Assembly: GCF_000253055.1 (NCBI RefSeq)
Contig: NC_016070.1
Coordinates: 1,080,001 to 1,112,000, forward strand
Reading direction: 5' to 3'
Source: Thermoproteus tenax Kra 1
GTDB taxonomy: Archaea; Thermoproteota; Thermoprotei; Thermoproteales; Thermoproteaceae
DNA length: 32,000 nt
The notes beneath the pieces are model-generated. The model did no database searches. It saw only the letters and a program-made list of their open reading frames with translations, and was not told where the DNA came from. This document shows positions 1,877 through 24,118 of this stretch, piece after piece. The stretch's first letter is position 1; each line of letters begins with the position of its first letter. The position numbers and the translations under genes are program-made.

Positions 1877-4117
1877 GAATCTCAAAGAGAGGATTGAAAG
1901 TCTGGACTGTGTGTTGCAACAGCGAAGTCGCGAACACCTCGACGAATCTCAAAGAGAGGATTGAAAGCGTTGATGTGGCCGGGACTGGCTGACTCAGCTA
2001 TTACGTTGAATCTCAAAGAGAGGATTGAAAGACTTCAAGGCGTGCTTGCTGGCGTTTTAGGCGACGATGAGCTGAATCTCAAAGAGAGGATTGAAAGCTC
2101 TTTTTCCTGCCCCGTTCTTCCAACTCTTCGCCGGTCGTGAATCTCAAAGAGAGGATTGAAAGCCGAGTAGCCGACGGCGCGTCCGCTCACTTAAGATCTC
2201 AGAATCTCAAAGAGAGGATTGAAAGTGTGATAGATGAGATAGACAAAATCAAGTTCAGCACCACGTGAATCTCAAAGAGAGGATTGAAAGGCGCACTAAT
2301 TACCGCCCCGGCGCAGGATTACCAATCTTGCCGGGCCGGTTGAATCTCAAAGAGAGGATTGAAAGTTGGTCTCAGGCGCGCGGTAGCCTTCCAGCTGTAC
2401 GACCAACTCGATGAATCTCAAAGAGAGGATTGAAAGTCCGGAGGAGGCGGCGAAGAGGATGATAGAGTTGGCCAGGCTGGGAATCTCAAAGAGAGGATTG
2501 AAAGGGCATGATTGGTTGCGCCGGGAGCTCTGGGATGTGATCCGCCAGAATCTCAAAGAGAGGATTGAAAGCTACTTGGAGTATGCCGGTCAAATTCGGT
2601 GGGGCGGACGTCGTACCGAATCTCAAAGAGAGGATTGAAAGTTTGTTGAAATAATCACCGTAACCCAGGCTTTCCAACCATCTTGAATCTCAAAGAGAGG
2701 ATTGAAAGATCGCTTGTCCAACCGGGCTCCTCTATAATTGTCGTCATTAGCTTAGAATCTCAAAGAGAGGATTGAAAGACTGGATCATCGATGGGCAGAA
2801 TGCGGGCGTGTCGGCTATATGGAATCTCAAAGAGAGGATTGAAAGCAAGTCGTCGAGAAGTATTTTGGTCTGCTGAAGCAGTACGGTTTCGGAATCTCAA
2901 AGAGAGGATTGAAAGGTACCACGACATCAGCCATGTGACTGTTGCGCCTAGCTCAATCTCGAATCTCAAAGAGAGGATTGAAAGACTTGAATTTCAACAA
3001 TGTCACCAGCACATATGTCCAGGCTAGGGAATCTCAAAGAGAGGATTGAAAGATTTTTATTCCTCATAAACATGGTCTCAAGGTCAGAACTAAGCCGAAT
3101 CTCAAAGAGAGGATTGAAAGAATGGCTCCAAGGGATCGTTCTCTAGACTCCAATTTTTCTAATGAATCTCAAAGAGAGGATTGAAAGTTTGTCGACGGGA
3201 TCTTGCGACATGCGGTACGCTGCAGTGTCGGAATCTCAAAGAGAGGATTGAAAGGCTCCACCGACCAGTACCCATATAGCGTGAACTCTTTCGCCGGAGA
3301 ATCTCAAAGAGAGGATTGAAAGAGTGCGCAGACCCCTGCACAGGCCGGCGTCCTTCACAAAAGAATCTCAAAGAGAGGATTGAAAGATGTAGAGCTTGAC
3401 CGGCGCCCCAGGATAGGGCACCGGGCCGGAATCTCAAAGAGAGGATTGAAAGTCTGTATCCCGCCGGCGCGTGGAGAAGGCGTTTCTCCACAACGTCGTC
3501 CTCGAATCTCAAAGAGAGGATTGAAAGTCGAGGACGATGTAGTCGGGATTGCTCGCGTTTATCAGCTTGAGAATCTCAAAGAGAGGATTGAAAGCTCGTG
3601 GATACTCCAAGCGAAAGAGTTCACGTTATACGGCTACGAATCTCAAAGAGAGGATTGAAAGTCCACAAGCCTCACGGCCGTCTTCACGGCGCGGCCCGGT
3701 CTGACGGGAATCTCAAAGAGAGGATTGAAAGGGGATATACTACACGGCCCTGCGCGTCATCGGGAACAAGCGCATGGGAATCTCAAAGAGAGGATTGAAA
3801 GTATTCCGTAGATTCCGGCGTAAAAGGTCTGGGCGGCGATGAATCTCAAAGAGAGGATTGAAAGCCGTGCACCTATGACTTTCAAGTACTCAAGGACGTT
3901 AGGAATCTCAAAGAGAGGATTGAAAGAACGCTTGGACAAATACCGTACCGCTACCCTCATATTGATAGAATCTCAAAGAGAGGATTGAAAGGGGATATAC
4001 GTCTCGGATTAAGCATAGCAGCTTCACCTCTGCGGAATCTATATGGTTTGAAAGGTCTCGAGTATAGACTACACGCCGAACTTTACATACTGAGCCTCAA
4101 AGCGAGCTCGTTGAAAG
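1877..4117 (+). CRISPR. CRISPR array 1 (32 intact repeats plus 2-3 decayed trailer repeats)
   Basis: 32 copies, identical by eye, of GAATCTCAAAGAGAGGATTGAAAG (first 1877-1900, last 3968-3991). Spacers are 38-51 nt. Decayed repeats follow at 4035-4054 and 4092-4117, with a possible third at 4153-4177. The upstream leader, the ATTGAAAG 3' end (8-nt crRNA 5' tag) and the downstream repeat decay all set + strand transcription. Confidence 0.98.
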
Positions 4118-4202: not shown

Positions 4203-4775
4203 CTAGATTTTTTCCACTGTTGTTGGCAGGTGGCTGCACCATTTTCTGTACCAACAGTTTTGGCATTTCGCCGGATTTGGGTTTAGGACCGGCGGCTTCC
4301 CCTGGAGTATCTGTTGTAGCCTCGAGACTGCGTAGTTGAGGAGCTCCTGTAGGTCTTTGGCCATGCGTATCTGGGCTATCTGGCCGCTCTCAGCGTAGTA
4401 TATATAGGCTGTGGCGACAGCCCTTCCGTACGCCCTCTGCACCATGGCGATGTAGGCGGCGGCTTGCGCCTTGTGGTGTATGGGGATGCGGCGGGGCCTC
4501 GCCGCGGCCTTCACCTCGAGGGGGCTCGGCCTTCCGTTGATCCAGAGTACGGCGTCCACTGTGCCGCATAAGGGCGGGGCGGTTATGTGGACGGAGTATT
4601 CGGCCCTCTCGGCGCCCAGGGCTTTGGCGGCGGCTTGTGCGGCCTCCTGCTGGATCTCTCTGCCCCTCTGCATCCGGAGGGTGGGGGGCTCTGGGGCGCC
4701 CGCGGCGATGTAGTAGGCGGCCATGGGGCAGTAGAGGTACTGACGTATTAGGCTCGGGTTAATGCAGAGCGACAT
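4203..4775 (-). CDS. cas4: Cas4 RecB-like nuclease with Fe-S cysteine cluster
   Basis: 190 aa. It has an N-terminal Cys (YLYCPM), a RecB-type D..EVK motif (GTVDAVLWINGRPSPLEVK) and a C-terminal CQNCWYRKWC. Its start overlaps the cas2 stop by 17 nt. Confidence 0.9.
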   Translation of the reverse strand: MSLCINPSLIRQYLYCPMAAYYIAAGAPEPPTLRMQRGREIQQEAAQAAAKALGAERAEYSVHITAPPLCGTVDAVLWINGRPSPLEVKAAARPRRIPIHHKAQAAAYIAMVQRAYGRAVATAYIYYAESGQIAQIRMAKDLQELLNYAVSRLQQILQGKPPVLNPNPAKCQNCWYRKWCSHLPTTVEKI

Positions 4776-5031
4776 GTCCCGCGGGAGGTCTGGGGGGTAT
4801 CCTCAGGGAGGTGTCTATCGTCCTCTTGTCTACCTTGAATATGGCTATGTCGGCGTTCGCGCCTCTTACGGCCCTCGCGAGCCTTTCGGCGAGCTCCTTG
4901 ACGAGGGCCGGCGGGAGCCTGCCGACGTAGGCGGAGCGCTGGATGCGTGCTAGGCCGTAGGCCCTGAGGATGTCGGCCACCTTGGCTCTGACGTCGTTCT
5001 CCGTTATGTCGTATACCACTATTACGTACAT
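4759..5031 (-). CDS. cas2: Cas2
   Basis: 90 aa from ATG 5031-5029. MYVIVVYDITENDVRAKVADILRAYGLARIQRSAYVG is a Cas2-type N-terminus with the conserved Asp. This is the only convincing part of the 264-aa ORF 4759..5553 apart from its Cas1-like N-terminus. Confidence 0.85.
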   Translation of the reverse strand: MYVIVVYDITENDVRAKVADILRAYGLARIQRSAYVGRLPPALVKELAERLARAVRGANADIAIFKVDKRTIDTSLRIPPRPPAGHVALH

Positions 5032-5655
5032 ATGGAGCGCGCCAGAGCTCTGACCTCTCTGTGGATCTCGGCGGAGAGAGGCCTCTTGGCCGCGTGGAGC
5101 TCCTCCAGGACTGCGGCGGCCAGCTCCAGGCGGGACCGGCGGGTGAGTAGGCCGCCCTCGGACTCCAGCCTGTCCGCCATCTTGGCCACGACGGCGTCTA
5201 CGCGGGGTCTCCATTGCTCCATGAAGTCCAGCGCCAGGGAGGGCCTTGGCCAGAGACTCGGCGTATTGGCTGTAGCCTCTGAGGCGGCGGCGCCAGGCCT
5301 TGATGTTGTCCCTCTGGCCCAATATCTTCTTGAAGACCCAACTTTTGGCGTACTGTAGCCCTCTGCCGTCCTCCGCCGCCTTGTACTGGCACCTCCTCTT
5401 GGCCCCCGTGGCGTCTCCGACCGGCCTCATGAATATGCCCAACGGCTCTCCGCGGGGGCTGAAGACGGCGACTGTGGCCCCGGTGGCGAGGAGGGCCCTG
5501 AGCGCCCTCGTCGTTATGGATATGCCGCCGGTGAGTAGGAGGACTTCGTCCACCTCGTGCAGAGGGTACTACCTGGCGCCCTCCTTTGTCTCCACGAGGA
5601 GGAGGCCCTTCCTAGCCCTTATCTTGACGCCGTATGAGGCCACTACGACCTGCAT
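5022..5655 (-). pseudogene. cas1: cas1 remnant (in-frame TAG, internal deletion with frame change)
   Basis: Read from ATG 5655-5653: MQVVVASYGVKIRARKGLLLVETKEGAR, then TAG (5571-5569), then YPLHEVDEVLLLTGGISITTRALRALLATGATVAVFSPRGEPLG...QRDNIKAWRRRLRGYSQYAESLAKA. The Cas1-like reading then continues only in another frame (PSLALDFMEQWRPRVDAVVAKMADRLESEGGLLTRRSRLELAAAVLEEL, stop at 5022). The span is 634 nt, which is not a multiple of 3, or about 211 codons against about 300 for typical Cas1. The segment expected to carry the catalytic Glu/His is missing. Confidence 0.7.
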
Positions 5656-6479
5656 ACGCTGTAGTAGGGGCACGTCTTGGGGCACTGGGGGGCGGGGCCT
5701 GGGTCTCTGGCGGAGGCGACGACGTCAATGGCCTCGTCTCTGGCCTCGAGGAACTTGGCGCGGGGCGCGTCGCCTAAGACGTAGGCAGACGCTCTGTACT
5801 CCACCTGCCCGTCCACGGCTATCTGGACGTGTATGCCGTAGTCTATGGGGACGCCGTACTCCGCCTCTATGGCCATGGCGTACCCAGCCAGCGCTACGTC
5901 CACGTTCTGGCTGGGGCCGAACTTGAACTCCACCACGGCCCCCAGCGCCACTCCGTCCGCCACGACGTAGCTGAGGCCGAGGGGGGCGCCGTCCACAGCT
6001 ATCTGGGCGGCTATGGGGGCGGCGTAGAAGGCGGCGGCGTCGCGGCTTCTGGCCAGGCGGGAGGCCAGCACGTATTGGTACTCGCCGGTGAGCCTTACGG
6101 CGATGTACCTATACAGCGCCTCGGCCTTAGCTCTGAGGTCCTCCGGCATGCCCTCGCCGGGAGGAGACATGGGAGCGCCCGAGTATACGTACCTCCTGAA
6201 GTCCTCCAGCGCCTTGAAGAGGACCGCGTGTAGGGCCTGCCCCTCGGCGAGCGGCTTGGTGGGCTGGGGCCTCTCCCCCAACACGTACTTGAGGTAGAGG
6301 CTCCTCCCCGTGGGGCAGTAGCCGTAGGCGAAGTCGGAGAGGGCGAGGCCTAGGTAGGCGGGGGGTTTGACCGGCTGTCTGTCGTAGGCCCAGCCCCTCA
6401 GCTCCGGCGAAACCTCGGCGGGGCCCTGGGTGACCTTGGCCCTCCTCAGAAGGCGGGCGATCTCCAGGAGTGTCAACAC
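5643..6479 (-). CDS. csa1: Csa1 / Cas4' (type I-A RecB-like nuclease)
   Basis: 278 aa with a GTG start. It has an N-terminal YGYCPTGR, a D..EFK nuclease motif (VADGVALGAVVEFKFG) and a C-terminal CPKTCPYYSVC. It sits at the first position of the csa1-cas1-cas2-cas4 string, as in type I-A loci, and overlaps the cas1 start by 13 nt. Confidence 0.75.
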   Translation of the reverse strand: MLTLLEIARLLRRAKVTQGPAEVSPELRGWAYDRQPVKPPAYLGLALSDFAYGYCPTGRSLYLKYVLGERPQPTKPLAEGQALHAVLFKALEDFRRYVYSGAPMSPPGEGMPEDLRAKAEALYRYIAVRLTGEYQYVLASRLARSRDAAAFYAAPIAAQIAVDGAPLGLSYVVADGVALGAVVEFKFGPSQNVDVALAGYAMAIEAEYGVPIDYGIHVQIAVDGQVEYRASAYVLGDAPRAKFLEARDEAIDVVASARDPGPAPQCPKTCPYYSVCRS

Positions 6480-6552
6480 GAAGTTTTGATGAGGTGTAGT
6501 GAAATCCTTTTTCGTCTACAAGGTTTATATCTCGGGTTGCAGGTGGCTTGCA
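6480..6552. promoter_or_regulatory. Divergent promoter region csa1 <-> csa3
   Basis: 73-nt gap between divergent start codons. TTTATAT at 6524-6530 is centred about 26 nt upstream of the csa3 ATG (6553), which suggests a leaderless mRNA. An A/T-rich stretch at 6503-6513 lies about 29 nt upstream of the csa1 GTG (6479). Confidence 0.45.
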
Positions 6553-7167
6553 ATGAGGATGGGCATCACGGTGGGGTTTGAGCACAGGTTCGCGGTGCGG
6601 GCTCTCGCCAAGCTGGGGCCGGCCGATGAGTACATCTTTCTCTACGCCTACACCGGCAGAGATGAGGACTCGAGGTCGGAGAGCACCGTGAGGGAGCTGA
6701 TAGCCGCGTTCGGGAGGGGGGCGGGATTCAGGGTGGATCTGACCAAGCCCAGCGAGGCGTTGGAGCAGATCTACGGCCTGGGGCTGGAGAGGGTCGTGTT
6801 GGCGGGCGGTCCTAGGTTGCTGGTGCTCCTCGCTCTATTGGCCTCCCTCCTCCGGAGATCCGAGGTATATGTCCTCCCGGAGTACTCCGCGGAGCCCCTG
6901 GATTTGACCCCCCTCACCGCGTTATGCGACCTCTGCAGGCTCAGCCCGGCGAAGCTGGGCATAGTGGCCTCAGTCAGCGGGAGGGTGGGGATAGACGACG
7001 TGGCGCAGTTGGTGGGCCGGGACTCGACGACTGTGGCGAGGTACCTCAAGGACCTAAGCGAGGCGGGGATTGTGAAGTCCCTCGGCGGCAGGAGGAGGGA
7101 GTACTTCGTCGACCCGCTCCTCACCACAGTTGCTCGTCTTATGCAAAACAGAGCTGGATCTTTGTAG
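6553..7167 (+). CDS. csa3: Csa3 CARF + winged-HTH transcriptional regulator
   Basis: The ORF opens at 6499, but MRMGITVGFEH (ATG 6553) is the typical Csa3 start. The CARF core is RVVLAGGPRLLVLLALLASLLRRSEVYVLPE. The C-terminal wHTH is IDDVAQLVGRDSTTVARYLKDLSEAGIV. Confidence 0.8.
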   Translation: MRMGITVGFEHRFAVRALAKLGPADEYIFLYAYTGRDEDSRSESTVRELIAAFGRGAGFRVDLTKPSEALEQIYGLGLERVVLAGGPRLLVLLALLASLLRRSEVYVLPEYSAEPLDLTPLTALCDLCRLSPAKLGIVASVSGRVGIDDVAQLVGRDSTTVARYLKDLSEAGIVKSLGGRRREYFVDPLLTTVARLMQNRAGSL

Positions 7168-7203: not shown

Positions 7204-7596
7204 ATGGAGTCTGTACAACTCAAGAAGGAAGAGCTAGTGGAGCGGGCCGCCCGCTCCGTAAGGCCGGCCGTACATCTGGAGATGGCCTACGATGTGTTGG
7301 ACGAGCTCTCCAGATCCCCTGAGAAGTACCCGGAGCAGTTGGCAAAGCTCTCGAGGATCGTTGTGAAGGTGCTGAACGACGTAGAGGATGAGCTCGAACA
7401 CAATCCCCAGAACGAGGAATTACAGAAGGCCAGGAATAGGCTGGCGGCTTGGGGCGGATACGTGGCCGAGCTCGCCAAGCGCCTTGAGGAGGCGGATGAC
7501 AGAGAGAGGATCCGGATGGTGAGGCTCTTCTGCGCCATGGCCCTAGCTCCCGACAAACTGACTGTAGAGCTGAAGAAGCTGCTTAAGGGGCGATGA
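7204..7596 (+). CDS. csa5: Csa5 (type I-A small subunit)
   Basis: 130 aa with charged, helical-looking composition. It is the first gene of the operon, directly before cas7, and its stop overlaps the cas7 start (7593-7596). The call is mainly positional. Confidence 0.6.
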   Translation: MESVQLKKEELVERAARSVRPAVHLEMAYDVLDELSRSPEKYPEQLAKLSRIVVKVLNDVEDELEHNPQNEELQKARNRLAAWGGYVAELAKRLEEADDRERIRMVRLFCAMALAPDKLTVELKKLLKGR

Positions 7597-8582
7597 GGGT
7601 GGCTCCCCCCTACGTTAGGGCCGCGGGCCGCTTCGAGGCGCAGCTGTCGGTCTTGACCGGCGCCGGCAACATGGGCAACTACAACATGCACGCCGTGGCC
7701 AAGGTGATTCACGGCGGGAAAGCCTACGAAGTGCCCGTGTTGACTGGGAACGCTCTGAAGCACTGGCACTCGGTGTATCTGGCCGAGGTGTACCAAGACC
7801 TCGGGGGGACGCAGCTGAACGAATTCTGCAAGAAGGGGGTGGGGCTGAGGGGGAAGAACATGAGCGGCGAGGACGCCTCCAGCGAGGCCGAGGCCATTAA
7901 AGACCTCTGCAACGACCTCCACGGCTTCCTCCTCCCTGACAAGCAGATCAAGCGCGACAGCCTCGTGAGGGTGTCCTTCGCGGTGCCGGTGCTGGAGGAG
8001 AAGAACCTCGAGGCGGCGAGCAAATTCGCCGTGGTCCACAACAGGGTGGACCCCTTCAAGAGGACGCAGCAGGTGAAGTCCAAGGAGGAGCAGGAGGGGA
8101 CGGAGATGATGGTCTTCAAACAGGAGTACTCATCGGCGGTCTACGGCTTCGCGGCGGCCATGGACCTCGGGCTCTCCGGAGTGCCGCTCTACCAGGAGGG
8201 AGAAAGTGGTGTAGACGATAGGGAGAGAGCGCTGAGGATAAAGTCGGCGCTTGTGGCTCTGCTACGGCTGTTCAACGGAGTTGGCTCTAAGCAGGCGCGC
8301 GCCCTCCCCATCGCAAGGCTTAGGGAGCTGGTGATCGCAATATCGGACTCGCCCATCCCCAACCTCGTACACGGCGCGTATCCAGACTACGTCGCAAGGT
8401 CGGCGGAGCTCCTGACGGCGTATTTAAAGGCTGTGGGGAAGAAGGGGGTCGTGCTGTGCTACGGCGTCGACTGCCCGCAGAGCAACAACGTCCTCGAGTG
8501 TAAAAAGGCCGACACGTTGGACGACCTATTTCAAGAGGCCCTTAGGAGGGCTCTGCCGGGGGGGCAACCCGCTAGGAGGTGA
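7593..8582 (+). CDS. cas7: Cas7 (Csa2) backbone subunit
   Basis: 329 aa. It contains LTGAGNMGNYNMHAVAKVI...VPVLTGNALKHWHS, the Csa2/Cas7-type glycine-rich loop followed by the ALKH motif. Confidence 0.85.
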   Translation: MRVAPPYVRAAGRFEAQLSVLTGAGNMGNYNMHAVAKVIHGGKAYEVPVLTGNALKHWHSVYLAEVYQDLGGTQLNEFCKKGVGLRGKNMSGEDASSEAEAIKDLCNDLHGFLLPDKQIKRDSLVRVSFAVPVLEEKNLEAASKFAVVHNRVDPFKRTQQVKSKEEQEGTEMMVFKQEYSSAVYGFAAAMDLGLSGVPLYQEGESGVDDRERALRIKSALVALLRLFNGVGSKQARALPIARLRELVIAISDSPIPNLVHGAYPDYVARSAELLTAYLKAVGKKGVVLCYGVDCPQSNNVLECKKADTLDDLFQEALRRALPGGQPARR

Positions 8583-9262
8583 TGCACTACTACTTGATCG
8601 AGGCCAGGGCGCCTCTGTACTCGGTGAAGGTGGTGGACGTCTACCAGGTGGCCTCCGCATATCCGCTCCCCACGCCGCACGCCGTCGTGGGGGCGCTGGG
8701 GGCGGCCATGGCCCACGCCGGCATGTGCCGGGGTTTGCAGTGTATGAAGGAGGCGGAGGGGCTGGTCGTGGCGGCTAGGCCGGCGGCTGTGGGGGAGCTG
8801 GCCAAGTTCCCCGCGGTGTTGTGGAGGACGCGGGGGGTGCTCGAGGACAAGTCCCTCCCGGCGGGCCTTGAGGACTACGCGGGCGCCCGGGACGCTATGG
8901 TTAGGGAGTACGTCTATGCCCACGCCGTCAAGATACTGCTGGTCACCAGGAAGAGAGTGCCGCAACACGTGATTAGGCTTATGGCGAGACTCGGCGACAG
9001 CGAGTCCTACGTGTCAGTCGTCGACGTCTTGGAGGGGAAGCCGAGGGAGTGCGGGGGGCTTGTCAACGTCGCCGTGAGGGCGGCGAAGGCGAGGAGAGGT
9101 AGCTACACGCTCTACCGCGCCTTAGACGAGAGGGGGAACCGGGAGCTCTTCGCATACCCCGTGGTGGAGGAGGGCGGGGTCTACAGGCGCGGCGGCGTGG
9201 AGGTTGGGTCTAAGGTGCTCTGCTTAGGCGAGGCTGTGTTCCCTGAGGGAGATGGTTGGTAG
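8579..9262 (+). CDS. cas5: Cas5a
   Basis: 227 aa. The N-terminus APLYSVKVVDVYQVASAYPLPTPHAVVGALGAAM matches the Cas5 N-terminal motif. It overlaps the cas7 stop by 4 nt. An alternative ATG start lies at 8582. Confidence 0.75.
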   Translation: MMHYYLIEARAPLYSVKVVDVYQVASAYPLPTPHAVVGALGAAMAHAGMCRGLQCMKEAEGLVVAARPAAVGELAKFPAVLWRTRGVLEDKSLPAGLEDYAGARDAMVREYVYAHAVKILLVTRKRVPQHVIRLMARLGDSESYVSVVDVLEGKPRECGGLVNVAVRAAKARRGSYTLYRALDERGNRELFAYPVVEEGGVYRRGGVEVGSKVLCLGEAVFPEGDGW

Positions 9263-10952
9263 AAGGCTTGACACGCTGGTGAGGGAGCTGAGCCTGGCGT
9301 GGTGTAGGTCGAAGGGGGAGCCCAGCTGCGCCGTGAGGGAGGACCTCCTCGCGGAGCAGGCCAAGGCGGCTGAGGTGATCGAGAGGTCAGACGGCGTGAT
9401 CCTCCTCAAGGCGCCGACGGGCTTCGGAAAGACCGAGATCTGGACAGCGCCGTTTTTCGCCCAGTGGCTCAGGGGGGAGTGGTTCGCGCCCAGGATGTAC
9501 GTCGTCGAGCCCATGCACGCCCTCCTTAGGCAGATGAAGAGGAGGATGGAGGTCTACGCCCAAGCCGTCCAAGGCCTGGGGCTCCCGAGGCTGAACGTCG
9601 CTGAGGATCACGGCGAGGTGGCGAAGCCCCTCTTCCTATACGGGGGGCACATAGTCCTCACCACAGTCGACTCGCTGGCCTACGGCTACCTCGCGAGGCG
9701 GGTACAGAGGTGGCGGGAGGAGGGCGTGGAGAGGGGAAGGTACAGCATGCCCGCGGGCCTACTCGCAAGCGCCTACATCGTCCTAGACGAGGCCCACCTC
9801 ATACAAGACGAGGCCTACCTAGGCCCCAGGGTGCTGGGGAAGATAGTCTGCGATCTGGCCTCCGCCGGAGCCAAGGTCGTCATATCCACCGCCACGGTCC
9901 CCGAGACATTCCTCAAGCACATCCCGTGCCTCGGCGGGAGGCTGACGCTTGGGTCCGGCACTGTCAGAAGAAACGTAAAGGTGGAGAGGAGGAAGGGGGT
10001 CCTCAAGGCGGAGGAAATCGAATGCGGCAAGCCCACCATCGTCATTGTGAACACTATAGAGAGGGCCCGGCGCATCTACAAACAGGTGAGGTGCGGGAAG
10101 AAGGCCGTGGTGCACTCGTTGATGAGGAGGGAGGACAAGGAGAGGCAGCTGAGCAAGGTGCTGGCGGACGGAAAGGTGGCCGAGGACGCTGTGCTGATTG
10201 GGACCCAGGCGCTTGAGGTGGGGCTCGACTTCTCCAACCTAAGGGCGCTCTACACTGAGACGGCCCCCGTAGACGCGCTGATCCAGCGCATTGGGAGGGT
10301 GGGGAGAGACGGGGATAAGGCGGAGGCCTACATCTACGAGGCCGAGGGCGATGCCCCCTACCCGCAGACCCTCATGCGGGCCACGCGCGAAGCCCTTGAG
10401 AAGGAGCTACTGGGAGGCGCCGCGCTGACGTCTTGGGAAGACGCACAGAGGGCCGTGGACAAAGTGTACAACGAGAAGGCCGTGGAGGAGCTCATGACGA
10501 GGGGGCTGGCGTGGTACGGCCAAGCGCTCGGCTACCTGCAGGAGCTGTCCCTCTTCTCCTACCCGCCCAGAGGAGAGGTGAGGATAAGGCCCTCCAACTA
10601 CATCACGCTTGTTATTGCTGACGTGAAGCAGGATGGGGATAAGGGGCGGTACATCACGGAGGACGACGTGGAGAGAGGCGCGATGAAGATGAGCTACACC
10701 TCCAGAGACGACCCCAGGATTAACGCCCTGCTCCAGAAGGTATCCACCGCATATACGGTGAGGGGGGTTGCCACGGCGAAGGACGAGACCCGCTACTACC
10801 TAAGCGAGCTCCGGAGGAGCTGGGATGGGGTTGAGGTAGTTGTGGTGGACAGGAGGGACGTGGAGGAGCTGTACGACGAGGCGGGGCTCGACGTGGCGCA
10901 GCTCAGCGGCGGAGGCCAGAAGAGGAAGGGAAGGGGGCGGAGGAGGCGATGA
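9252..10952 (+). CDS. cas3: Cas3' SF2 helicase
   Basis: 566 aa. Motif I is KAPTGFGKTE, motif II is LDEAH, motif III is STAT and motif VI is QRIGRVGR. Confidence 0.9.
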   Translation: MVGRRLDTLVRELSLAWCRSKGEPSCAVREDLLAEQAKAAEVIERSDGVILLKAPTGFGKTEIWTAPFFAQWLRGEWFAPRMYVVEPMHALLRQMKRRMEVYAQAVQGLGLPRLNVAEDHGEVAKPLFLYGGHIVLTTVDSLAYGYLARRVQRWREEGVERGRYSMPAGLLASAYIVLDEAHLIQDEAYLGPRVLGKIVCDLASAGAKVVISTATVPETFLKHIPCLGGRLTLGSGTVRRNVKVERRKGVLKAEEIECGKPTIVIVNTIERARRIYKQVRCGKKAVVHSLMRREDKERQLSKVLADGKVAEDAVLIGTQALEVGLDFSNLRALYTETAPVDALIQRIGRVGRDGDKAEAYIYEAEGDAPYPQTLMRATREALEKELLGGAALTSWEDAQRAVDKVYNEKAVEELMTRGLAWYGQALGYLQELSLFSYPPRGEVRIRPSNYITLVIADVKQDGDKGRYITEDDVERGAMKMSYTSRDDPRINALLQKVSTAYTVRGVATAKDETRYYLSELRRSWDGVEVVVVDRRDVEELYDEAGLDVAQLSGGGQKRKGRGRRRR

Positions 10953-11629
10953 GCTGCTGCGCCTACTTCCGGGGGAGGGACTGCCTCCAGACCTACGAAG
11001 ACCACATCACGCAGGCTCTGGAGGCGTGTGAAAGGCTGAGGCCCTACTACGGCCGCTGGATGGAGAAGGCATTTGGGACCGCCGACGCCGCCGCCCTAGC
11101 CGTGGAGTTCCACGACCTAGGCAAGCTCGCCAAGGCTTACATAGCCGGCAACCGCGCCAGATATAGGCACGAGGTGTTGGGGGCCTACTTTGCGTTGAAG
11201 ACCCTACAGACGGAGGCGAGATACTACGTGGCGGCGGCGGTCGCGCTCCACCACGAGCCCATGATCCTCGCCGCCTACGCCGGCGAGCTCGGCGAGAGGG
11301 CTATCCACGTCTCCACGCTGAGGGCCATGCTGAAGGACTCCGACCTGAGCCTCGGTTGCACCCCCAACTACAGCTACAGGCCTGAGGTAGCCGCGGCGCT
11401 GAGGGAGTGGGCAAGCAGACCGCCCACCGCCGACGACGTGGCCGACGCCTTCCAGGAGCTCGCCGTGTATCTTAGCGGCGGCGCCCCCGAGGAGGCGAGG
11501 GTCAAACGGCTGAGGGTGGCCGGGCTACTACACGTGCTGACCGTATGCGACAACTGGGGAGCGAGGGGCCGTCCAGGAGAGGGAACCTTCATTAGCAGAT
11601 ACATGACAGTGAGCGAGCTGGGGCTATGA
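10949..11629 (+). CDS. cas3: Cas3'' HD nuclease
   Basis: 226 aa. HD-domain residues are FHDLGKL, YRHEVLG and ALHHEP. It overlaps cas3' by 4 nt. Confidence 0.85.
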   Translation: MSCCAYFRGRDCLQTYEDHITQALEACERLRPYYGRWMEKAFGTADAAALAVEFHDLGKLAKAYIAGNRARYRHEVLGAYFALKTLQTEARYYVAAAVALHHEPMILAAYAGELGERAIHVSTLRAMLKDSDLSLGCTPNYSYRPEVAAALREWASRPPTADDVADAFQELAVYLSGGAPEEARVKRLRVAGLLHVLTVCDNWGARGRPGEGTFISRYMTVSELGL

Positions 11630-12711
11630 CCCAGTGCCCCCAGGAGATGATCACGCCGGGCCACGGCATTATAGCCGACGCCCTCATCATGCACGGCCTC
11701 ATCAAGATCCTCCACATCGAGGGGAAGATGGAGGGGTGGGCAGAGCGGCGAGGCGAGAGATTCGTCGTATGCGCCGAGAGGCCGGATCTGAACTGGATAG
11801 ACCAGTGGGAGCCCATGGAGCTCCTCGAGATCGCCGCGGAGTTCAAGGCGAAGGGCAAGGATAGGGCATCGGAAGAGGAGGAGCAGAGGCCCTACTTCGG
11901 CTTGGTGCACGACCTTTCCAGATCCACAGTGGACCCGGGCAACTTCTCCAGCTGGATCTCCGACGTCAGAGAGGCGCTGTATGCGCTCAAGGCGGACTTC
12001 GACCTCTCCGAGGAGCACAAGGAGAAGAGGGGGGAGGGCCGCGCCCGCTCAAAGAAACGCGGGTACTACACGCTCTACCTCCCCCTCTCGGGGGTCTACG
12101 GCAAATACGTCGTGGAGAACTACGGCATAAGGCAGTCCCAGTACGCGGTCTGCGCCACGTGCTTCGCCCTCAGCACCCTGGGCTACATCTACGGCACCGT
12201 AAAGGCGCGGGTGGAGCGGAGGTCCTCCTCCGGCGGGGGACACGACGTCTTCAACCTCACGTTTATCCCAAGGGAGAGGACGTCGCTGAGGTCCCTCATG
12301 GCGCTTCAGAGGATGGCAGGTCTCGTAGAGATGCGGCCGGGGGATCTAAACGAGCTGGGGGCAGTGGTGTACATGCTGTCGGTCGGCGAGACCATATACG
12401 CGGTGAGAGAGGGCGTGGACATCCTCGTCTGGGTCACCCAGAGGGCCGGCAACTTCCAGAGGACCGTCGGGGTCAACATATTCAGAGGCGACAGACTGTT
12501 GGAGGCCATCGCAGAGATCAAGTACAGAGCCCCCAGTTGGCCCAAGATAGCGAGGCAGCTCGGCAGCTCCCTAAACGTCCTAGGCGAGTACCTCGCCTTC
12601 GGCGGCGACGTGTACCACGTCATTAGGTCGGTGATGGCCGACTTGGGGAGGAAAGGGGGGAAGTTGGCCGGGCTGGAAGGTCTCGCAGAAGCCCTTAAAA
12701 AGATAGGCTAG
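11626..12711 (+). CDS. cas8a2: Cas8a2 (Csa4-like) large subunit
   Basis: 361 aa. It is the last canonical gene of the csa5-cas7-cas5-cas3'-cas3'' string and overlaps cas3'' by 4 nt. The call is positional and size-based, with no diagnostic motif recognised. Confidence 0.55.
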   Translation: MTQCPQEMITPGHGIIADALIMHGLIKILHIEGKMEGWAERRGERFVVCAERPDLNWIDQWEPMELLEIAAEFKAKGKDRASEEEEQRPYFGLVHDLSRSTVDPGNFSSWISDVREALYALKADFDLSEEHKEKRGEGRARSKKRGYYTLYLPLSGVYGKYVVENYGIRQSQYAVCATCFALSTLGYIYGTVKARVERRSSSGGGHDVFNLTFIPRERTSLRSLMALQRMAGLVEMRPGDLNELGAVVYMLSVGETIYAVREGVDILVWVTQRAGNFQRTVGVNIFRGDRLLEAIAEIKYRAPSWPKIARQLGSSLNVLGEYLAFGGDVYHVIRSVMADLGRKGGKLAGLEGLAEALKKIG

Positions 12712-12720
12712 AACAAACCC

Positions 12721-13578
12721 GTGTTCAAATTCGAGTTCTGCCCCACGCGGTCGCGCTGCCTCACCAGAGGGAGTGGGGAAATGGCGGACGTCACAGTGAT
12801 AATGGGCCCTCCGAGGGCCGGGAAATCCCTATTCCTCGCCCTCCTCTACGGCCTGTCCTACTACTCCAGACAGGGCAGAATTCCCGGCTTCCTGCGGGAG
12901 CTGGCCGAGAGCTACCTCGGCGCTGGGGGCCACATAGGCCTTGAGACGGAGGACGGCGTCGTCAGATGCGAAAGCACGGCCGACGGGGTCTCATGCACCG
13001 CAGACGCCAGGCGCCAGTTCATGGCCTACCTCCTATACGAGGGCCTGGAGTACACACTGAGGTTCAGACACTGCGCACCCCCCGACGAGAGGGGGGAAGT
13101 GTTGGCGTACATAGAAAAGGCCGTGATGAAGAAAGCCGGCGAGAGGTACCCGGTGGCGGTACGCGGCGGAGAGCTGTGGGAGGAAGTAGGCGGCAGGCAC
13201 CTGCCCATAAGGCACTCCTCCAACGCGGTTGTCCTCGTCGGTGTGCTCGAGCGCCTCGCCAGCTACGCCTCAGAAGGCGAGATGCTCCTCCTCGACGGCA
13301 CCCTCGACGGCCTCTACCCAGACGACGCCGCCTACCTCGCCTACCGGATAGCCCAGGCGGCCTCCCGAGGCGCAAGAGCAGTGGTGGCCACCCACCTCCC
13401 CCTCATCTACGACCTATTCAACAACCTAGACGCAGTGGCGGAGTACCTAAGAAGGGAGAAGCTACGCGTGGAGACGGCCGGCTGGATCTTCCACGCGGGG
13501 GAGATAACCCCCGCCGACTACAACCTAACCCCCTACGGCAGAGTCCTCATGGAGATATACAGCAAGATATACCGATGA
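12721..13578 (+). CDS. ABC/AAA_21-like P-loop ATPase with non-canonical Walker B
   Basis: 285 aa from GTG 12721, 9 nt after the cas8a2 stop. An alternative ATG lies at 12781, preceded by GGGAGTGGGG. Walker A is GPPRAGKS. RHSSNAV resembles the ABC signature. Walker B is MLLLDG, with Gly where the catalytic Glu is expected. The H-loop is VVATHLP. Confidence 0.65.
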   Translation: MFKFEFCPTRSRCLTRGSGEMADVTVIMGPPRAGKSLFLALLYGLSYYSRQGRIPGFLRELAESYLGAGGHIGLETEDGVVRCESTADGVSCTADARRQFMAYLLYEGLEYTLRFRHCAPPDERGEVLAYIEKAVMKKAGERYPVAVRGGELWEEVGGRHLPIRHSSNAVVLVGVLERLASYASEGEMLLLDGTLDGLYPDDAAYLAYRIAQAASRGARAVVATHLPLIYDLFNNLDAVAEYLRREKLRVETAGWIFHAGEITPADYNLTPYGRVLMEIYSKIYR

Positions 13579-14015
13579 GCTGCTGCCCCTGCATCGCCAG
13601 ACTCGACATACCAGACGGCGGCAAACACGTCACGAAGTACCTACGCATCTCCCAGATGCAGAGCCACGACCCCAACGAAGTCCACAAATACCTCAGCCAC
13701 GTTCTAGACGACAGCATCTCCGACGACTGCCTACGCCACAGAGACAACGCCGTAGACTGCTACTTCCTCGACAGCAGCGGCCAGAAAATCGGCGTTGAGT
13801 TCACCACAAAACTCGACACAAGCCACATAAATACCAAGACGATCGACGGCAAGCAATGCGACGCCTCCCGCTGCAGAGCGGTCATAGTGTTGCCGGCCAA
13901 GAACGCCCCAGATATCCGAATGAAGACGGGAATACTCACATGCCGAAGCCACAGAGACTGCGCCAAACTCCCCCACCTCCTGCTTGAGTACGAGATAGTA
14001 ATCGTGTACATTTGA
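13575..14015 (+). CDS. Cys-rich 146-aa protein of unknown function (possible PD-(D/E)xK-like nuclease)
   Basis: The ATG at 13575 overlaps the ATPase stop (ATGA). The amino-acid composition is balanced, unlike the R/P/G-rich spurious frames elsewhere. It has 9 Cys, including an N-terminal MSCCPC. AVDCYFLDSSGQKIGVEFTTK loosely resembles a D..E..K nuclease core. Caveat: the coding strand is unusually G-poor for this locus. Confidence 0.45.
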   Translation: MSCCPCIARLDIPDGGKHVTKYLRISQMQSHDPNEVHKYLSHVLDDSISDDCLRHRDNAVDCYFLDSSGQKIGVEFTTKLDTSHINTKTIDGKQCDASRCRAVIVLPAKNAPDIRMKTGILTCRSHRDCAKLPHLLLEYEIVIVYI

Positions 14016-14078
14016 ACGCGCCAAGTGCCCGTATAGCTCAGTCCCGCCTACACGGCCAGCTTACGAAACGCCAAGCGG

Positions 14079-15084
14079 TCAACCTTCGTAGAGGATTGAG
14101 GCCAGCTGCTTAACCCTGCCTGTCAACAAATCGGGGCTCAACCCCATCGACTTCAGAGCTTGCTCCGCCTCGGGCGGCAGCTCGGCGAGGTCGCTGGGGC
14201 TTGAGATCCTCAAGAGCGAGGCCCCGCCCTCCGTCTTATAGACGAAATAGGCGGGCACGCCCCTCTTCAACGCGATCAACACGTCGTCCACGTAGTTGCT
14301 CTCGAACACAGTGACCCCCCTCCTCCTCCTCGCCAGTATCCTCTCCACGAACCTCAGCCTAACCGGCTCGTAAAGAGACACCTCAGACAGATCGATGTGG
14401 AGCGGAGCGTCCCAAGCCGTGTAGGCCCTGTGCAGAACACCATAGATAGCCTCCACCCCCCTCCCCGCCTCCTCCGGGCTGAGCTTAAGGCCCACAACCT
14501 CGTCATATGCCCCACCTGGCGAAATCACATAGCCGCCAGTCCGTTCCTCAAAAGGCTCGGCAGGGCCGGGCTCAGGCCTCAGAAGTCTCGCTACGTAGAG
14601 GGCTAGCTTGCGGGCCGTCCCCTCCGTCCCCCGCTCAAGCTCGCCCTCAACGCTCAACCCCTCCGGAGACGCCGCCAGCTCCTGGTCTAGCTCGACCGAG
14701 AAGTCCAAGACGTGGGGCTCGTCGCCAGCCACAGCGACAGGTCACCCTCCCATAGTCGCACTGGGCCAACCTGTTGGCGTGATCCGCAGAAACCTTCCGA
14801 AGCTCCTCCACCACGTCATGGGGAAACGGCACGCCGTAGCACTTCGACCTAGGAAACGGCAAGCCCTCCACAGACACGCTTACACGACCCCGAGGCGTCC
14901 TCCTCCAAGCGCTGACACGTCTCCCCAGGTACAGCCCCCTCCCCCACTCCAAGTAGCCAAACGCCGTAATCGCGGTATATATCGTGGTCTTCCCCACCCC
15001 ATTCGGCCCAAAGAGCAGAAAAACCTCAGGAAGCTCCACATTGAGCTCCCTAATAACGCCAAAATTCTCAACAACAACCCTCAT
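14079..15084 (-). pseudogene. ABC/SMC-like ATPase split by a 1-nt frameshift
   Basis: The N-terminal frame (from ATG 15084) reads MRVVVENFGVIRELNVELPEVFLLFGPNGVGKTT, a Walker A preceded by the typical beta strands. The C-terminal frame (14732..14079) carries a signature-like YVISPGG, a Walker-B-like LHIDLSEVSLYEP, then VTVFESNY where the H-loop is expected. The frames switch at about 14740-14745 (GGGAGGGTGACC). A TGA at 14744-14742 closes the C-terminal frame upstream. Confidence 0.6.
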
Positions 15085-15171: not shown

Positions 15172-16997
15172 CCCTCAACCGCCATCACGAGATTCAACGC
15201 CGAATACATGCCAAGCGAGGACATAGTTCCATACATGCTCTTTCAATCTTCTATTTAAGACTCTATATGTGCTGATGCGGCTTGAGGACGCACTAGATGA
15301 GATTGAAGCTTTCAATCCTCAACTTGAGATTCGCCGGTCAGGCGCGTCCTTGAGGAGTTCGTCTCGAGGTCGCCCATCGCTTTCAATCCTCTTTTTGAGA
15401 TTCCGAGCTCAATTTCCCCGGCCTCATTGACTTTGTACTTGGGTCTTTCAATCCTCTTTTTGAGATTCTGAAGGCCCAAACTCAGATCCAGAAAAGAATA
15501 AAAATAAATCTTTCAATCCTCTTTTTGAGATTCCGTGCTACTTCCGGCCGGGACAACTATCACGTACTCGTTCTCCGCCTTTCAATCCTCTTTTTGAGAT
15601 TCCGCCGGGCTCCCCGCGGCCATCATCGCGTCAGGCTGTCGCTTTCAATCCTCTTTTTGAGATTCTAGGTTCTACGGATAATATAATGCAGGTATTTGTA
15701 GAAAGTTCACTTTCAATCCTCTTTTTGAGATTCTATCGTTACGTTGTCGTACCAAACGACTTGAGCCGGCTGATCTTTCAATCCTCTTTTTGAGATTCGA
15801 GATACATATCGTTGAGCGTGGCATTAGATGCTTTGTCGATACTTTCAATCCTCTTTTTGAGATTCCGAGCCAGGCGGGCACGTTCAACTGGTGGGATCTC
15901 ATCTTTCAATCCTCTTTTTGAGATTCCCCGAAACCCAAATGGACAGCAGAATTCTGGCGATAAAGGCGGAGATCTTTCAATCCTCTTTTTGAGATTCAAG
16001 AGGTAGTTAAGCACTTCAACGCAATAGGCTTTATGCCCTGCTTTCAATCCTCTTTTTGAGATTCTATATGAGACCAACCACGAGACTGAGTTCTATATTG
16101 ATCCATTACTTTCAATCCTCTTTTTGAGATTCCGACGCCCGCGTCATCCCCAACGTCGGAGATGCAGGTCTTTCAATCCTCTTTTTGAGATTCAGCGTGG
16201 CTCCACTCGTCGGAGCATGCGACGAAGGCCGGCCTTTCAATCCTCTTTTTGAGATTCCCTGGCTGTGTAAAGGTTGTCGAAGTACCTGGTCAACCTTTCA
16301 ATCCTCTTTTTGAGATTCAGCACGATGAGGAGGCCGAGGAACCCCTTGAACCTGTCCCCTTTCAATCCTCTTTTTGAGATTCTTCTTCAGCCACCACCAG
16401 AATAGGAAGGCCGCCACGATGAACTTTCAATCCTCTTTTTGAGATTCAGCCACCGCGAAGTAGTTGAGACAGCGCCGGCGTGACGTTCAACTTTCAATCC
16501 TCTTTTTGAGATTCAAAGCCGAGGTGAACAATTTTTATTGGTCTTAATGTATTCCCCTTTCAATCCTCTTTTTGAGATTCAGGGAACATATACAAATTAT
16601 AAGGCCTTAATAACAATAGAGAACTGCGACTTTCAATCCTCTTTTTGAGATTCACTGTTATGAGACCGTCCCCGTACTGGTAGACCTTGTACCCCTTGCT
16701 CTGACTTTCAATCCTCTTTTTGAGATTCGGTTCACTGAGAGGTACGGAGAATCCATGCACTGGCCTTGCGGCTTTCAATCCTCTTTTTGAGATTCAAACA
16801 AATTAGGAGATGTAGTGATAGCGAAAAGGAACGAGGCTTTCAATCCTCTTTTTGAGATTCCACGAGCATCCCCAAGCCCGAAGTAATTGTCAAATACCCA
16901 GAGCTCTTTCAATCCTCTTTTTGAGATTCAAAGCTTAGAATTGGAATTTCTACTATTGCGCTTAGATAGCTATCTTTCAATCCTCTTTTTGAGATTC
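15172..16997 (-). CRISPR. CRISPR array 2 (25 intact repeats plus 3 decayed trailer repeats; A11 repeat variant)
   Basis: The plus strand shows CTTTCAATCCTCTTTTTGAGATTC, which is GAATCTCAAAAAGAGGATTGAAAG on the minus strand. There are 25 copies from 15380-15403 to 16974-16997. Spacers are 37-51 nt. Decayed repeats lie in register at 15309-15332 (3 mismatches), 15240-15263 (4) and 15172-15195 (9). The leader is on the high-coordinate side. Confidence 0.98.
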
Positions 16998-19595: not shown

Positions 19596-22722
<3,127 letters not shown>

Positions 22723-23069: not shown

Positions 23070-24118
23070 GAATCTCAAAGAGAGGATTGAAAGTCAAATT
23101 CACAATCAACTTTCTACTGAACTTCCCGTCATGGAGAATCTCAAAGAGAGGATTGAAAGGCGCGCTGTATACAGCGCGCCTTTCGCGGCAGATATCGCCC
23201 TCAGCGAATCTCAAAGAGAGGATTGAAAGCTTCGTCGAGAAGTCCTCGACGCTCAGAGACATATTCTACAACAAGAATCTCAAAGAGAGGATTGAAAGCT
23301 TCTTACTTCCTCAAGTCTCCTGGCTATCTCCTGAATTTTTTCGAATCTCAAAGAGAGGATTGAAAGAGGCTACGCGATGTGCTAATTCAGTTGCGCGACG
23401 TGGCCGACTCGAATCTCAAAGAGAGGATTGAAAGTCGACGACGATGAAGTCCGGATTGCTCGCGCTTATCAGCCTGAACGAATCTCAAAGAGAGGATTGA
23501 AAGGTAGATCTCGACTGCCACCGCCGGCTTGGCGCCGCGCCACGTGTAAATTGAATCTCAAAGAGAGGATTGAAAGGGATAGACACGGCGGAAGCAATAT
23601 GGACATCTGATCTCATCGAGAATCTCAAAGAGAGGATTGAAAGCTTTTATACATCTTTCTTTTTCGGCTATGTGCGACAACTGAATCTCAAAGAGAGGAT
23701 TGAAAGTCTAGCTCAACTACCTTTTCGCCCATGTCCAAAGGCCCAGACCTGAATCTCAAAGAGAGGATTGAAAGAACAATAATGATATCGTGTGCAAAGA
23801 TAGACAAAAGCGGCGAATCTCAAAGAGAGGATTGAAAGCTTGGGCGTTGGAGCGGACAGAGCCCGCGCGCTCTTGAGGGAGAGGGAATCTCAAAGAGAGG
23901 ATTGAAAGCTTCCTCACTGCGCACTCTCTCGTACTTGCACAGTTTGGCGAATCTCAAAGAGAGGATTGAAAGACCGCCAGCTTGAGCATGTGCGTAGTCC
24001 CGCCGGTCTCCCACGGAATCTCAAAGAGAGGATTGAAAGTCTGGTGGAACCATAAACGGCAAAACCAATTCATCGTCCCAGACTTTGATTTTGTGAATCT
24101 CAAAGAGAGGATTGAAAG
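23070..24118 (+). CRISPR. CRISPR array 3 (16 repeats)
   Basis: 16 copies of GAATCTCAAAGAGAGGATTGAAAG (first 23070-23093, last 24095-24118). Spacers are 39-55 nt. No clear decayed terminal repeat was found. Confidence 0.97.

Follow-up and report, generated by a model that had tools for sequence, protein, structure and literature searches.

The stretch of DNA examined here, referred to as the window, comprises 32,000 nucleotides (nt) of Thermoproteus tenax Kra 1 (contig NC_016070.1, positions 1,080,001 to 1,112,000 of the forward strand), and all coordinates below are counted from its first letter. Within it lies a type I-A CRISPR interference operon (csa5, cas7, cas5a, cas3', cas3'' and cas8a2; 7204-12711), equivalent to TTX_1250-1255, whose last core interference gene, cas8a2 (csa4; 11626-12711, plus strand), matches Pfam Cas_Csa4 (E = 1.5e-35) and NCBIfam TIGR01914 and is TTX_1255 (Table SII, PMC4005679). 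Nine nucleotides after its end at 12711, and on the same strand, a GTG codon opens the gene for a Cas-associated ABC-type ATPase of 285 residues (12721-13578), a start supported by conservation of the N-terminal 20 residues in homologues. It is followed on the plus strand by the gene for a cysteine-rich protein of 146 residues and nine cysteines (13575-14015), whose start overlaps the ATPase stop in an ATGA (13575-13578), so that the pair is, judging by the sequence, translationally coupled here. A first-pass annotation, made from the sequence alone, had picked out the P-loop open reading frame (ORF) with its Walker A, Walker B and H-loop motifs, the ATGA overlap with its nine-cysteine neighbor, and the 4-nt start/stop overlaps within the operon itself (7593, 8579, 10949 and 11626); the first two are present as it described them, and the operon overlaps follow from the ORF coordinates.

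By gene order the two genes are almost certainly TTX_1256 and TTX_1257, since TTX_1255 is cas8a2 and the next two genes match the published descriptions; gene position, not annotation, is the basis of this assignment. TTX_1256 and TTX_1257 are the named examples of two type I-specific accessory families, 'Cas ABC ATPase (ABC_ATPase)' and 'small RRM protein (sRRM)', in the survey of Vestergaard, Garrett and Shah (Table 5; 2014, RNA Biol 11:156, PMC3973734), which counted five members of the former and four of the latter and proposed no mechanism. In that survey a partner protein of about 150 residues invariably accompanied the ATPase, inside or beside type I cas cassettes; the two families were called related to type III-associated counterparts; the pair constituted the sole non-core genes specific to type I, the Thermococcales type I-adjacent families excepted; and the accessory proteins were not normally encoded outside cas cassettes. 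The genes of the window answer to both descriptions—an ABC ATPase domain encoded directly beside a type I cassette and, joined to it through the ATGA overlap, a protein of 146 residues that accompanies the ATPase in most informative loci—and nothing in their identity sets them apart from the published families. Among the literature searched, TTX_1256 or the term 'Cas ABC ATPase' is named only in this survey (PMC3973734). As a bioinformatic association, then, the pair has been known to be CRISPR-associated since 2014. The first-pass annotation had presented it as novel and outside any recognised type I-A Cas family, and had counted membership in an already described Cas accessory family among the outcomes that would tell against its reading; by position the genes are the families listed in 2014, and the claim of novelty lapses, though Pfam, NCBIfam and PADLOC hold no such family. 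What is added here is the layout of cas8a2, pair and cas6, the loss of a catalytic glutamate from the ATPase and a D...ExK-like motif in the partner, and the value of these lies in a sharper, testable hypothesis rather than in discovery.

For the ATPase, a word-indexed search of 5.8 billion proteins returned one relative (35% identity, full length), and a profile search of 1.84 billion representatives returned 19 clusters at E < 1e-10, whose complete members run to 255-323 residues. Searched on its own, the window protein stays below threshold for every family in Pfam, NCBIfam and PADLOC. Of 18 members of its family, however, 11 match AAA_21 and nine match AAA_15, and the family profile finds ABC ATPases in the PDB (ABC-F, UvrA, ArtP, OLD, ABCE1, PtuA and AriA) with E values down to 1e-11. 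An AlphaFold2 model built from the 18-sequence alignment is of high confidence (predicted local distance difference test, pLDDT, 92; predicted template-modelling score, pTM, 0.90), and its top Foldseek matches are the heads of SMC, Rad50, cohesin, PtuA, AriA and RecF, at template-modelling (TM) scores of about 0.5. In the position that SMC and Rad50 devote to the coiled coil, the model places a beta-rich insert of about 35 residues. Within that insert, almost all of the 18 family members preserve two cysteines, C83 and C92 (nt 12967-12996), which could pair as a disulfide or contribute half of a metal site.

These features define a minimal ABC head of the SMC/Rad50/PtuA type without coiled coil, and they separate the protein from several better-known classes. 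It is not an ABC transporter subunit: the match to ABC_tran (E = 0.27) reaches 12 bits where 25 are required, the signature position departs from LSGGQ, the window has no transporter gene next to the ATPase, and the neighbors elsewhere are cas genes. The long coiled-coil insertion of SMC and Rad50 proteins is missing from a protein of only 285 residues in total. The first-pass annotation had pointed to Septu-, PARIS- and Gabija-like architectures, a comparison that does not extend to membership, as there is neither a family profile match nor a cognate partner: PADLOC gives no match to PtuA, AriA or GajA, its best match to the ATPase is partial (PD-T4-4_A, E = 1.9e-4), and no HNH, Toprim or helicase gene adjoins in the window.

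The nucleotide-binding motifs are retained with one consistent exception. Walker A reads GPPRAGKS (12805-12828, plus strand), and the pattern G-x4-GK[ST] is kept across the clade; the H-loop reads VVATH (13381-13395, plus strand), with T224 and H225 invariant in the 18-sequence alignment; and the signature position reads HSSNAV, the serine pair being kept. At Walker B, MLLLD is followed by GTLD (MLLLDGTLD; 13282-13308, plus strand), which puts a glycine at the position of the catalytic glutamate. The absence of this glutamate, already remarked on for the window protein, proves to be true of the whole Thermoproteus/Pyrobaculum clade: 51 distinct clade sequences yielded 47 Walker B motifs, every one of them DG[TIL]LD, with Walker A and the TH of the H-loop kept, while distant family members have DEPE, DDPE or DNPE. 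In ABC ATPases the residue after the Walker B aspartate is the catalytic base, and its exchange from glutamate to glutamine in SMC proteins, Rad50 and transporters traps the ATP-engaged dimer. Because the glutamate is replaced throughout the clade, we infer slow turnover, with ATP binding and dimerisation preserved, and the earlier description of this ATPase as switch-like is a reasonable one.

The small partner is far less visible to sequence databases, which yielded no relative other than that of the sister strain. Relatives were recovered in translated DNA downstream of ATPase homologues, in a Thermoproteus sp. metagenome-assembled genome (L004; tblastn E = 4e-15), in Pyrobaculum sp. WP30 (L005) and in the loci L007-9, L010, L011-13, L015 and L016. 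Across 38 distinct sequences D32, N34, E35, Y39 and C62 are invariant, and C4, P5, C6, R9, R24, D45, D61, G73, V74, E75, F76, K88, C95 and C100 exceed 85%. The loose D..E..K segment noted at first pass (DCYFLDSSGQKIGVEFTTK) is the conserved core of the protein, VDC...IGVEFTTK (D61, C62, E75, T77 and K79; 13755-13811, plus strand), which in the 38-sequence alignment emerges as a candidate D...(D/E)xK catalytic motif. The family consensus, VDC-x(12)-GVEFK, conforms to a D...ExK pattern, E35 and C62 being present in 38 of 38 sequences, D61 in 35 and E75 in 36, with lysine at position 77 in 29 and threonine in nine. In weak alignments this core falls on the D...ExK of CRISPR-associated PD-(D/E)xK nucleases, namely the Cas4 of L011 (E = 0.17) and the DUF1887 protein of PDB 8bao (E = 0.64), neither of which is significant. 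On balance we lean, from the sequence pattern, toward a metal-dependent nuclease of the PD-(D/E)xK type, a preference that follows from the invariant upstream glutamate, the ExK consensus and the cysteine clusters, and is thus one of motif logic rather than fold.

That the small ORF is non-coding, as its G-poor strand and its ratio of synonymous to non-synonymous changes between strains had suggested, was considered and rejected, since homologues with invariant residues occur across genera; a 97-residue antisense ORF has gained a stop codon in the sister strain.

Genomic context associates the pair with type I-A interference. Scanning metagenomes for the T. tenax clade, with a six-sequence clade alignment as query, gave 49 loci; here and in the other loci, neighbors were annotated wherever sufficient flanking DNA was available. 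The ATPase stands beside I-A cas genes in 38 of these 49 and in 10 of 12 other distinct loci, usually in the order cas8a2, ATPase, small protein, cas6, and the partner is present in 31 of the 35 metagenome loci that retain at least 600 nt downstream. For example, L004 and L015 read csa3, csa5, cas7, cas5, cas3', cas3'', cas8a2, ATPase, partner; L011-13 keep the same order and continue with cas6 and then cas4, cas2 and cas1; in L006 a fragment of cas8a2 runs into the start of the ATPase gene; and the typical metagenome order is cas3'', cas8a2, ATPase, partner, cas6. Other arrangements occur: the pair is divergent from cas6 in L010, and the pair or the ATPase follows cas6 in L005 and L014. Exceptions to cas adjacency are short contigs, L001, and an element (L035, L056, L058 and L060) with the downstream genes seen in L014 but no cas operon. 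That the pair forms a coupled extension of the operon, as first proposed, is supported by these neighborhoods, most related loci having it next to I-A cas genes, and the pair is not a housekeeping ABC component, a possibility raised at the outset.

A few of these loci are unusual in their own right. The solo ATPase of L035 (2683-3525) looks recombinant, with an N-terminal half like that of the Pyrobaculum WP30 type (P0004) and a C-terminal half like that of P0005/L014, and adjoins what reads as a glycosyltransferase-like ORF, not cas genes. L001, the only contig whose ATPase homologue lacks both cas neighbors and a partner, has that homologue in a C5 methylase neighborhood, where an inverted repeat of about 1.07 kb and 83% identity (2662-3719 and 6005-7074) flanks the C5 DNA methylase gene. 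Two tandem copies of ATPase, partner and cas6 occur in L044, and two tandem I-A interference operons in L048. Virus-borne copies of the ATPase clade were sought as well, and none was found in IMG/VR or phage records.

Across 19 loci, pairwise identities of ATPase and partner correlate at r = 0.90, as do those of Cas7 and Cas3' at r = 0.96, while cross-correlations between the pair and Cas7 or Cas3' fall to 0.38-0.55; as pairs of loci are not independent, these values are descriptive. ATPase and partner thus co-vary as a unit that tracks Cascade only loosely. The source of this looseness is preserved in Pyrobaculum-type loci (L005, 9661-10007; L022, 5630-6007), where a remnant fusing T. tenax-type cas3'' (residues 14-62) and cas8a2 (residues 316-355) lies directly upstream of the ATPase. 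The ATPase, partner and cas6 of such loci are the leftovers of a second I-A operon with deleted Cascade genes, now located behind a different I-A variant, and the pair thus outlived its own Cascade genes.

Taken together, these observations favor a reading in which the pair probably constitutes an ATP-gated dimer of ABC heads that carries a probable nuclease and operates alongside I-A interference. ATP would drive head-to-head dimerisation of the ATPase and, with hydrolysis slow or absent, the dimer would serve as a nucleotide-gated clamp or scaffold, not a motor. To this dimer the small protein would bind, and that the two form a complex is quite likely. The conserved cysteines of the partner suggest one or two metal sites, and the E35 / D61 / E75-x-K arrangement points to a nuclease of the PD-(D/E)xK type or, failing that, to a subunit that binds nucleic acid. 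The complex may then act on nucleic acid made during I-A interference, in the manner in which PtuA holds PtuB, AriA holds AriB and Rad50 holds Mre11. Dependence of this function on the I-A Cascade appears probable to us.

Several observations weigh against this reading, and they fall on the chemistry of the partner, on the state of the T. tenax copy and on the tie to Cascade. As to the chemistry, the partner gives no significant match in Pfam, in PDB profile searches or in hhalign comparisons with Csa1, Cas2 and Cas4; its AlphaFold2 model, from an alignment of two rows, has a pLDDT of 34 and no readable fold; and its published label is RRM, not nuclease (PMC3973734). The small protein could accordingly be an RNA-binding RRM protein that, with the ATPase, aids Cas6-dependent maturation or loading of CRISPR RNA (crRNA). 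Such a role would suit a published profile-profile assignment (PMC3973734) and the presence of cas6 after the pair in most loci, and a ferredoxin-like fold would be compatible with the approximate succession of strands, helix, two strands and a further strand in the low-confidence model. Yet neither Pfam nor PDB sequence searches detect an RRM family for the partner, and an invariant acidic set, ExK in 29 of 38 sequences and up to seven conserved cysteines are more typical of a metal-dependent nuclease. Nor does cas6 adjoin the pair in the T. tenax window, the cas6 genes of this organism being situated elsewhere in its genome, and Cascade assembled in vitro without these proteins bound synthetic mature crRNA (PMC4005679). 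We therefore regard a crRNA-processing RRM as very improbable, and retain the nuclease as the preferred identity of the partner.

As to the T. tenax copy, it has T77 in place of the consensus lysine, with K79 two residues on, lacks the conserved cysteines at positions 67 and 137, and differs from the sister strain by two synonymous and six non-synonymous changes, a pattern that is uninformative when taken by itself. The copy may accordingly be weakened, and at the extreme the Kra 1 pair could be a decaying, non-working relic of a family that is possibly functional elsewhere, a view to which the odd composition of the small ORF, the absence of an adjacent cas6 and the neighboring ATPase pseudogene (below) would add. 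Against decay, both ORFs are intact in the two strains, the sole indel being an in-frame deletion of 3 nt from the small ORF of the sister strain; the ATPase shows 16 synonymous and nine non-synonymous codon changes relative to the sister strain L002, at 97% nucleotide identity; and every invariant residue of the partner is kept. Moreover, 243 nt of the small gene (13596-13838) are without substitution relative to L002, where the surrounding 1.4 kb differs by about 3%, a stretch that could reflect synonymous-site constraint or a recent recombination tract. We judge a relic to be decidedly unlikely.

As to the tie to Cascade, the pair is convergent with cas8a2 in L007-9 and L016, and the convergence to the operon in L007 and L016 means that it can be transcribed independently; the ATPase occurs alone or without cas neighbors in L001, L014 and L035/L060; and the table of a Csa5 pull-down lists only TTX_1250-1255 and TTX_0235, a second Cas7 (PMC4005679). 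A stand-alone module for defence or abortive infection, Septu- or PARIS-like in combining an ATPase with a nuclease, could produce the same picture if it were merely co-located in a defence island and acted independently of Cascade. PtuA and AriA are indeed among the closest structures, and profile searches of the PDB reach PtuA, AriA and OLD; convergence to the operon, survival of the pair after loss of its cognate Cascade genes, and a divergence only loosely tied to Cascade would all be expected of such a module. Set against it are the I-A adjacency counted above, usually between cas8a2 and cas6 with gaps of a few nucleotides or overlaps; the lack of a significant PADLOC family match; the absence of an HNH or Toprim partner; and the published statement that these accessory proteins are not normally found outside cas cassettes (PMC3973734). 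On this evidence a Cascade-independent module is rather unlikely, and an ABC head with its partner working alongside I-A interference remains our preferred interpretation.

Comparison with known systems helps to define what such a complex might resemble. Similar in setting are the type III-associated Cas ABC ATPase and sRRM (YN1551_2137 and YN1551_2138) and Cas_RecF and RFas (P186_0874 and P186_0873), in which, as here, an ABC/SMC-type ATPase is always accompanied by a protein of 150-170 residues in crenarchaeal cas cassettes (PMC3973734); both are linked to type III rather than I-A, and the comparison is one of descriptions only. PtuA-PtuB of Septu, also the effectors of retron I-A, and AriA-AriB of PARIS share the ABC/SMC head and are among the top structure and profile matches of the ATPase. 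PtuA and AriA oligomerise and hold a nuclease partner, which is HNH in PtuB and Toprim in AriB; their matched PDB chains run to about 390-550 residues, against 285 here, and their systems are not linked to cas genes. Rad50-Mre11, SbcC-SbcD and SMC proteins share with the pair the fold of the ATPase head (TM about 0.5) and, on the reading preferred here, a design in which heads dimerised by ATP work together with a nuclease. Rad50 and SMC proteins, however, carry a coiled coil or zinc hook where this ATPase has its short beta-rich insert with two conserved cysteines, and Mre11 is a phosphoesterase, a type to which the partner does not belong. Likeness to the PD-(D/E)xK nucleases Cas4, Csa1 and Can2/Card1 (DUF1887) lies in the candidate D...ExK motif, aligned below significance, and, for Cas4, in the richness in cysteine; the partner has no CARF domain, and its cysteine pattern differs from those of Cas4, Csa1 and Can2, with a C-x-C at the N-terminus followed by C62, C67, C95, C100 and C137 (family positions).

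A bolder proposal can be framed from the same material, namely that the pair is an extra component of I-A interference in Thermoproteaceae, an ATP-locked, non-hydrolysing SMC-head clamp that brings a metal-cluster PD-(D/E)xK nuclease to the targets of Cascade and Cas3. As a whole this is speculative and unlikely, and if it were true the roles to consider would be finishing the destruction of targets or trimming Cas3 products into prespacers. On this proposal, the survival of the pair together with cas6 after deletion of its own Cascade genes would suggest that it can serve a second I-A system in trans. Type I systems are generally credited with hardly any dedicated accessory genes. The I-A Cascade of T. 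tenax is one of few archaeal Cascades to have been reconstituted in vitro, so that the consequence of supplying it with TTX_1256 and TTX_1257 can be tested directly. Should the partner be a nuclease, an ABC head that lacks its catalytic base throughout a clade, combined with that nuclease, would connect CRISPR interference with the ATPase-plus-nuclease principle behind Septu, PARIS and Rad50-Mre11.

Facing the pair on the minus strand is a second ABC/SMC-like ATPase (14079-15084), which the first-pass annotation had included in the module. The motifs it cited are present (GPNGVGKT, ISPGG and HIDLSEVSLYEP), and the N-terminus matches AAA_23 over the P-loop only (E = 1.3e-7); matches to AAA_23, AAA_15, AriA, PtuA and GajA are confined to about 40 P-loop residues. 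Its reading frame is broken between 14739 and 14740, the place proposed earlier (about 14740-14745), by an event of a different size: compared with L003 (sister strain, Logan run SRR28178318), 8 nt are deleted rather than one inserted or lost, which displaces the frame by one. A 1-nt sequencing error is thereby rejected. L003 reads through this point with its eight extra bases, is itself short of one base at each of two later places, and then meets a stop codon; the 14 synonymous and 10 non-synonymous changes between the strains suggest that these disruptions are recent. Searches yielded no relative beyond the sister strain, and no hits that would make the gene viral or place it in related loci. 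Kinship with the first ATPase, whether as paralogue or partner, was likewise rejected, for hhalign aligned the second ATPase to the first family over only 27 P-loop columns. It is, then, a degenerate, lineage-restricted orphan pseudogene, unrelated to the pair and broken independently in both strains, and does not belong to the module.

A CRISPR array whose transcription runs toward this pseudogene has a degenerate trailer repeat about 125 nt from the pseudogene start. That array (15240-16997, minus strand, 27 repeats), identified by pattern search and Rfam CRISPR-DR45, is the second of three and terminates beside the pseudogene in two degenerate repeats (15240 and 15309), which abut the pseudogene start. 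The first (1877-3991, 32 repeats) and third (23070-24118, 16 repeats) share a one-base repeat variant and run in the opposite orientation to the second. At its end the window repeat carries ATTGAAAG, which has been described as the crRNA tag of T. tenax arrays 4-7, and the 5' tag of the crRNA is given as AUUGAAAG (PMC4005679). An Rfam scan of the window matched only CRISPR repeats, and a non-coding RNA within 12721-15084 was rejected on that basis.

Elsewhere in the window, a single ORF of 264 residues (4759-5553, minus strand) encodes part of Cas1 (positions 37-137 of the 283 in the Pfam profile) and a Cas2 domain, linked by a segment of about 70 residues, rich in arginine, glycine and proline and seemingly out of frame; in another frame, a 66-residue ORF (5022-5222) looks like further Cas1. 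Between the second and third arrays lie a NurA-domain gene (19596-20591, plus strand) and a HerA-type helicase gene (21121-22722, minus strand), and a HerA and NurA pair is among the CRISPR accessory genes of Vestergaard 2014 (PMC3973734). Base composition also changes along the I-A operon and its extension. Guanine at third codon positions stands at 45-50% from csa5 to cas3', shifting to 52% cytosine in the ATPase and to 60% cytosine with 16% guanine in the small gene. The G-poor coding strand of the latter (22% G), which the first-pass annotation had flagged as a caveat, is real but lineage-specific, and C-rich third positions are not seen in the homologues of L004, L005 and L015. The GC skew of the window flips sign near 13000.

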